A DNA stretch of 64,000 nt, taken from Escherichia phage vB_EcoP_CU10EC. This document shows, piece by piece, positions 3,491 through 4,018 of this stretch (position 1 is the stretch's first letter; each line of letters starts with the position of its first letter). The DNA lies in sequence record PQ435408.1, one strand, 5' to 3'. The notes below the pieces were generated by a model. It saw only the letters and a list, made by a program, of their open reading frames with translations. It had not been told where the DNA came from and did no database searches. A program made the position numbers and the translations under genes.

Positions 3491-4018
3491 TTGGAGCTGA
3501 CCCATTCACTCAGGCATACGCCTATATAAAATCCTTACCAGATTATAAATCTGCCGAGGAAATTTAATAAAAGCCCCGTAAGGGGCTTTTCTTCTACCCC
3601 ACTCTACTATAAATAAGTATTATTTGGAGCTGACCCATTCACTCAGGCATACGCCTATATAAAATCCTTACCAGATTATAAATCTGCCGAGGAAATTTAA
3701 GAAAAGCCCCGTAAGGGGCTTTTCTTCTACCCCACTCTACTATAAATAAGTATTATCTTTTGGTCAGACTCTTCTTTGGAGCTGACCCATTCACTCAGGC
3801 ATACGCCTATATAAAATCCTTACCAGATTATAAATCTGCCGAGGAAATTGAAGAAAAGCCCCGTAAGGGGCTTTTCTTCTACCCCACTCTACTATAAATA
3901 AGTATTATCTTTTGGTCAGACTCTTCTGATACGTCCCGAATAAGGGGCTTTTCTTCTACCCCACTCTACTATAAATAAGTATTATCTTTTGGTCAGACTC
4001 TTCTGATACGTCCCGAAT
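3491..4018. repeat. Intergenic tandem array: three units of about 133-152 bp plus a 77-bp partial unit, each carrying a terminator-like hairpin
   Basis: Unit begins ttggagctgacccattcactcaggcatacgcc; hairpin aagccccgtaaggggctt recurs at 3571, 3704, 3856, with a degenerate copy at about 3941; offsets 133, 152, 77. Confidence 0.85.
3569..3595 (+). terminator. Intrinsic terminator (copy 1 of 3-4 in the array)
   Basis: Stem agcccc / ggggct with loop gtaa, followed by tttcttct; copies also at about 3702-3728 and 3854-3880. Confidence 0.6.

Follow-up and report, generated by a model that had tools for sequence, protein, structure and literature searches.

The genome record of Escherichia phage vB_EcoP_CU10EC (PQ435408.1) holds, at positions 3491-4018, a tandem array of hairpins and downstream motifs between tail-fibre and lysis genes, which raises the question of whether this phage carries several terminators in series or whether the repetition arose in another way. 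The window, namely the whole stretch of 64,000 nucleotides that was analysed, is that of an N4-like coliphage of the genus Gamaleyavirus, and its closest record is phage AN24P2, with 98-99% identity over 3469-16336. We conclude with high confidence that the array is a sequence-assembly artefact, in which variant branches of a k = 77 graph were written serially, and not a structure of the phage genome. It is very unlikely that any real DNA molecule contains the array, and what the real phage has at this place is almost certainly one ordinary terminator hairpin.

The identity to AN24P2 is 98.5-99% over 3469-16336, but 88-95% across most of the remaining window. This step reflects either natural mosaicism or the joining of contigs from different co-occurring phages. 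A literature search on the names of the nearest phages found nothing.

Layout of the array and its upstream flank

Tandem repeat search using TRF revealed periods of 133 nt (3490-3756, 99%), 152 nt (3623-3927, 99%) and 77 nt (3864-4018, 100%). The hairpin with its tail, AGCCCCGTAAGGGGCTTTTCTTC, has three copies starting at 3572, 3705 and 3857, and the downstream motif CCCCACTCTACTATAAATAAGTATTAT has four, starting at 3597, 3730, 3882 and 3959, compared to zero for either in shuffled sequence. These repeat counts are far above chance. The repeated modules with spacings of 133, 152 and 77 nt, as read in the earlier note, are thus present in the sequence at 3491-4018, as judged by both TRF and the motif counts. 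The number of units given there, three to four, holds for the three full hairpins and the four downstream motifs, but in the fourth unit the hairpin is reduced to its 3' half. A further hairpin scanned at 3933-3948 is a chimera made by a segment junction. The features of the array and its upstream flank are as follows.

1-3468, plus strand: 1734 nt from within a tail-fibre gene, present as an exact tandem duplication (1-1734 = 1735-3468, no mismatch at offset 1734)
3469-3623, plus strand: segment 1, 155 nt (2 x 77 + 1), variant T,T, starting at the misjoin 3468/3469
3569-3590, plus strand: hairpin AAAAGCCCC-GTAA-GGGGCTTTT with U-rich tail; further copies at 3702-3723 and 3854-3875
3624-3775, plus strand: segment 2 (variant T,G) of 152 nt, which opens 77 nt ahead of SNP2 (3701) and closes 77 nt past SNP1 (3698)
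3776-3940, plus strand: segment 3, 165 nt, variant G,G, ending 77 nt past 3863
3941-4051, plus strand: start of segment 4, whose first 77 nt (3941-4017) exactly repeat the last 77 nt of segment 3 (3864-3940)

The array copies differ at two sites that are 3 nt apart and read T,T at 3565/3568, T,G at 3698/3701 and G,G at 3850/3853. Segment 1 comprises the last 32 codons of an 84-aa gene, followed by hairpin 1 and the downstream motif. The reference point for the end of segment 3, position 3863, is a hairpin-loop G at which AN24P2 has a T. The 77-nt repeat that opens segment 4 is an untrimmed k-mer overlap, after which the sequence runs into the true 5' leader of a 110-aa gene (ATG at 4052) and is collinear with AN24P2 onward. 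The junctions of the array show microhomology of no more than one T.

The units carry the 3' end of the 84-aa gene, and therefore each begins with coding, not intergenic, DNA. The array had been described as intergenic, which is only partly correct: the first ~75-99 nt of each unit are the 3' end of this gene, which is intact in relatives. A 19-bp indel had also been reported between units; alignment of the units with AN24P2 and IME11 revealed no such indel, and the segments instead end at different points of one underlying sequence.

The upstream flank consists of a tail-fibre-like ORF, the PHROG tail-fibre match of which is weak. The 1734-nt duplication yields a chimeric ORF of 1155 aa (6-3473) that ends at a chance TAG. 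Homology to AN24P2 begins exactly at 3469, where the translation of segment 1 corresponds to residues 53-84 of the 84-aa protein of AN24P2 and IME11, both of which have the gene intact; the first 52 codons of this gene were not found anywhere in the window. The site 3468/3469 is a misjoin, because the 1734-nt block is single copy in the relatives (three of the three phage records that hold it) and because Klebsiella phage vB_Kpl_K57alpha1.2 has ~2.5 kb more between this block and the intergenic region. This ~2.5 kb is missing from the window.

The deposited annotation of the latter record (OY979416.1) seems out of register with its sequence. Its RIIA/RIIB, helicase and DNA polymerase features sit on DNA homologous to the tail-fibre/lysis region, and nearly all of its CDS are flagged as partial or pseudo.

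Copy number in relatives and matching arrays elsewhere in the window

The earlier note had proposed comparison of this region in related phages as a check, and had set the finding of a single unit against its own reading. A single unit is what we found: the 152-nt unit occurs at one place and in one piece in 10 of the 10 phage records that hold it. The suggestion that terminators in series act as a transcriptional insulator is accordingly not supported, as the multiplicity is that of an assembly artefact. The leader is likewise present once in each of the 17 records that contain it. When 133, 152 and 77 nt (362 nt in all) are removed here, together with 155 nt in the endolysin gene, the sequence aligns to AN24P2 over 1115 nt without gaps at 98.3% identity, and the alignment of the collapsed sequence against IME11 has one gap. 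The array alleles themselves look natural; TTTAAT is the form of AN24P2 and TTTAAG that of BaqKoxi. A 30-mer spanning junction 1 had no match in three public contig collections (viral, genome and metagenome).

Besides this locus, the window contains four further near-perfect tandem arrays.

4638-4947, plus strand: array in the endolysin gene, two 155-nt units that match as 77 exact nt, one mismatch (4715/4870) and 77 exact nt
29526-29912, no strand: array of two units of 155 nt each, then an exact repeat of 77 nt (29759-29835 = 29836-29912)
48275-48584, minus strand: array in the RIIA-like gene, two 155-nt units
50046-50797, no strand: array of four branches in series, measuring 221, 221, 155 and 155 nt (221 = 77+1+65+1+77)

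Every array in the window has exact-identity runs of 77 or 78 nt beside single mismatches. At three loci, the runs between copies are 77 and 77 nt around one mismatch; in the array at 50046, they are 78, 65 and 78 nt, then 65 and 77 nt, and 57 and 77 nt. Exact 77-nt repeats at segment joins occur twice in the window, at 3864-3940 = 3941-4017 and at 29759-29835 = 29836-29912. No biological duplication puts the sole mismatch at the exact centre of the unit at several independent loci.

Two of these arrays interrupt genes. The endolysin ORF falls into two parts of 93 and 207 codons, and after collapse it encodes a 211-aa protein, a length as in relatives. Similarly, the RIIA-like gene is split into 476 + 310 codons; collapse gives a protein of 854 aa, the match of which covers the RIIA PHROG profile in full. 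No viable phage would have such breaks. All arrays of the window that can be aligned to AN24P2, including that at 50046-50797, are single copy in AN24P2; the check covered the alignable arrays, and 29526-29912 lies in a stretch without AN24P2 alignment. As a second option, the earlier note had considered that the array shares a duplication process with the rest of the window. This proved correct. In the shared process, branches of a k = 77 graph were written one behind another; it is not a biological duplication.

Segment lengths, the k = 77 graph and competing explanations

To compare the segments with assembly-graph edges, k = 77 de Bruijn graphs were built from the variants visible in the window. 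For units that span from the vertex before the first variant site to the vertex after the last, the expected length is 2k+1 plus the distance between the outermost sites, and where an edge belongs only to a mixed haplotype, the distance between the sites is instead subtracted from 2k+1. Our literature search on SPAdes bubble lengths found no direct paper, and what can be cited is the general bubble geometry, by which a lone SNP in a de Bruijn graph produces two paths of 2k-1 nt that are polymorphic at one position (PMC4750246). Such a bubble of 2k-1 nt together with its two flanking vertices measures 2k+1 = 155 nt at k = 77.

The predicted lengths were found: 155 nt at three loci, 221 nt for SNPs 66 nt apart and 152 nt for SNPs 3 nt apart. 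Both units at 4638, 29526 and 48275 are reproduced as exact edges of the k = 77 graph, and segment 2 (3624-3775) is an exact graph edge from three visible variants alone. In a four-variant model, 3776-3927 is a 152-nt graph edge. Only k = 77, among k = 55-99 and 127, reproduces the segments (seven of seven).

A three-variant haplotype model was also tried for the whole array and rejected; it accounts for 3624-3775 and leaves the ends of segments 1 and 3 unexplained. Only with three assumed, unseen alleles do the two ends of segment 1 (3469 and 3623) and those of segment 3 (start at 3776) become branching vertices. These alleles are a G,T variant, one at 3546 and one at the loop position 3578/3863. 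In IME11, the varying position is 3547 instead of the assumed 3546.

We propose that the sample would have been a mixed or polymorphic population of several closely related Gamaleyavirus variants. Assembled from short reads on a de Bruijn graph with k = 77, the variant branches would have stayed apart as individual contigs or edges, and these pieces would then have been written head to tail in genome order, with the alleles uncollapsed and the 77-nt overlaps untrimmed. At the present locus, three allelic versions (T,T / T,G / G,G) and one untrimmed 77-nt overlap would give the apparent units of 133, 152 and 77 nt. The value k = 77 is among the defaults of SPAdes, the edges of which overlap by k. 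We infer that the assembler was SPAdes-like and that the concatenation step took this form, and the unit junctions would be absent from real molecules.

An artificial origin by another route, in which a scaffolder or graph-path tool crossed alternative branches or the alleles were joined deliberately, is very improbable as a separate account. It draws on the segment ends that need unseen alleles and on the exact 1734-nt duplication, which shows no obvious k = 77 arithmetic. However, the pieces are k = 77 graph edges whatever the tool, which makes this route, itself non-biological, a variant of the best explanation and not a true alternative to it.

Also very improbable is that a terminator-plus-leader module was truly amplified in tandem in this phage, with three to four serial terminators that would insulate the tail-fibre operon from the lysis operon. 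The three strong hairpins of the given sequence are in keeping with it, and the copies differ by two point changes, as recent duplicates could. However, the segment ends lie exactly 77 nt from variant sites, the 77+1+77 pattern recurs at unrelated loci, and at two of these it would knock out genes, namely the endolysin and the RIIA-like gene. Moreover, no relative has more than one copy, the units carry a gene 3' end beside a flank that is clearly misjoined, and the junctions offer almost no microhomology. Least probable of all is that the array is physically real, a recent amplification, before the lysis cassette, of a module with a gene 3' end, a terminator and a leader, and that the k = 77 arithmetic is coincidental to the assembly of a true repeat. 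Altogether, we retain the serial writing of graph branches as the explanation of the array.

The single-copy locus and its known counterparts

In the real phage, the locus consists of one copy each of the 3' end of the 84-aa gene, a GC-rich hairpin followed by a U-run, and a conserved leader that precedes the lysis genes. Downstream of it are the 110-aa gene of unknown function and the genes of a holin, an endolysin, a spanin and the portal. The 84-aa gene ends with a TAA stop codon at 3565-3567, and the hairpin begins 1-3 nt after it. The hairpin has a GC-rich stem of 9-12 bp, a 4-nt loop and a U-rich tail (UUUUCUUCU); its minimum free energy lies between -17.0 and -20.2 kcal/mol (z-scores between -3.3 and -4.2). 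Other phages of Gamaleyavirus and Kaypoctavirus keep the stem-loop with a changed sequence, and a structural role is supported because the structure is kept despite the different sequence. Searching Rfam over 3300-4300 gave no hit at the gathering score, only weak matches to terminator-like sRNAs. The single hairpin is most likely an intrinsic terminator that would end the transcripts of the tail-fibre module.

Variant G,G (3850) has GAA in place of the TAA stop of the 84-aa gene, and the ORF would be extended by 16 codons through the hairpin to a TAA at 3898-3900 (equivalent position). If it occurs as a real minor allele, this variant represents a natural stop-loss polymorphism.

The repeated unit had also been credited with a promoter-like part, CCCCACTCTACTATAAATAAGTATTAT. 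A sigma-70 consensus scan that asks for -35 and -10 hexamers with 16-18 nt spacing on the plus strand called no site in this motif, and its plus-strand matches sit in the 3' end of the gene (TTCACT-16-TAAAAT). A -10-like TATAAA without a -35 hexamer in CCCCACTCTACTATAAATAAGTATTAT could still serve as an activator-dependent late promoter of the kind found in N4-like phages. A genome-wide promoter or regulatory consensus was considered and rejected, since the motifs of the array occur only at this locus of the window.

The leader contains one further element.

3992-4014, plus strand: GTCAGACTCTTCTGATACGTCCC, an invariant 23-mer within the leader that precedes the 110-aa gene; artefactual extra copy at 3915-3937

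The 23-mer is invariant in seven aligned phages from two genera while the neighbouring sequence varies, and it occurs nowhere else in the window beyond the true and the artefactual copy. Part of it folds as a small hairpin, GUCAGA-CUCU-UCUGAU. This version of the leader is restricted to the 17 phage records mentioned above. The 23-mer may be a regulatory element of the lysis cassette, for which we consider it a candidate.

The array itself is of no biological importance, and its value is that of a warning on the at least six serialised-variant artefacts and one misjoin of the window. We advise against biological interpretation of gene calls, repeats and "frameshifted genes" near 1-3468, 3469-4017, 4638-4947, 29526-29912, 48275-48584 and 50046-50797. 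The 77+1+77 signature provides a quick diagnostic of the same fault in other sequences.

Compared to known systems, the single hairpin resembles an intrinsic (Rho-independent) terminator after a phage late gene in its GC-rich stem-loop, its U-run and its position just past a stop codon. It differs in an upstream A-run that makes the hairpin symmetrical, and a consensus scan calls copy 1 on the minus strand. The arrays of the window, in turn, resemble the SNP bubbles and untrimmed overlaps of SPAdes-style de Bruijn graphs at k = 77, with which they share units of 2k+1 = 155 nt with a central mismatch, the 152- and 221-nt lengths for two SNPs, and exact 77-nt repeats at the joins. However, assemblers normally pop bubbles or report separate contigs, whereas here the branches stand serially in one sequence, and some segment ends of the array at 3491-4018 need alleles not visible in the window. 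A similar case is that of circular contigs from de Bruijn graph assemblers, for which it is well known that an exact terminal repeat of length k in a phage contig is an assembler product. In both, an exact k-long repeat reflects the assembler and not the genome; the terminal repeat lies at the contig ends, whereas the present repeats are internal and accompanied by allelic branches.
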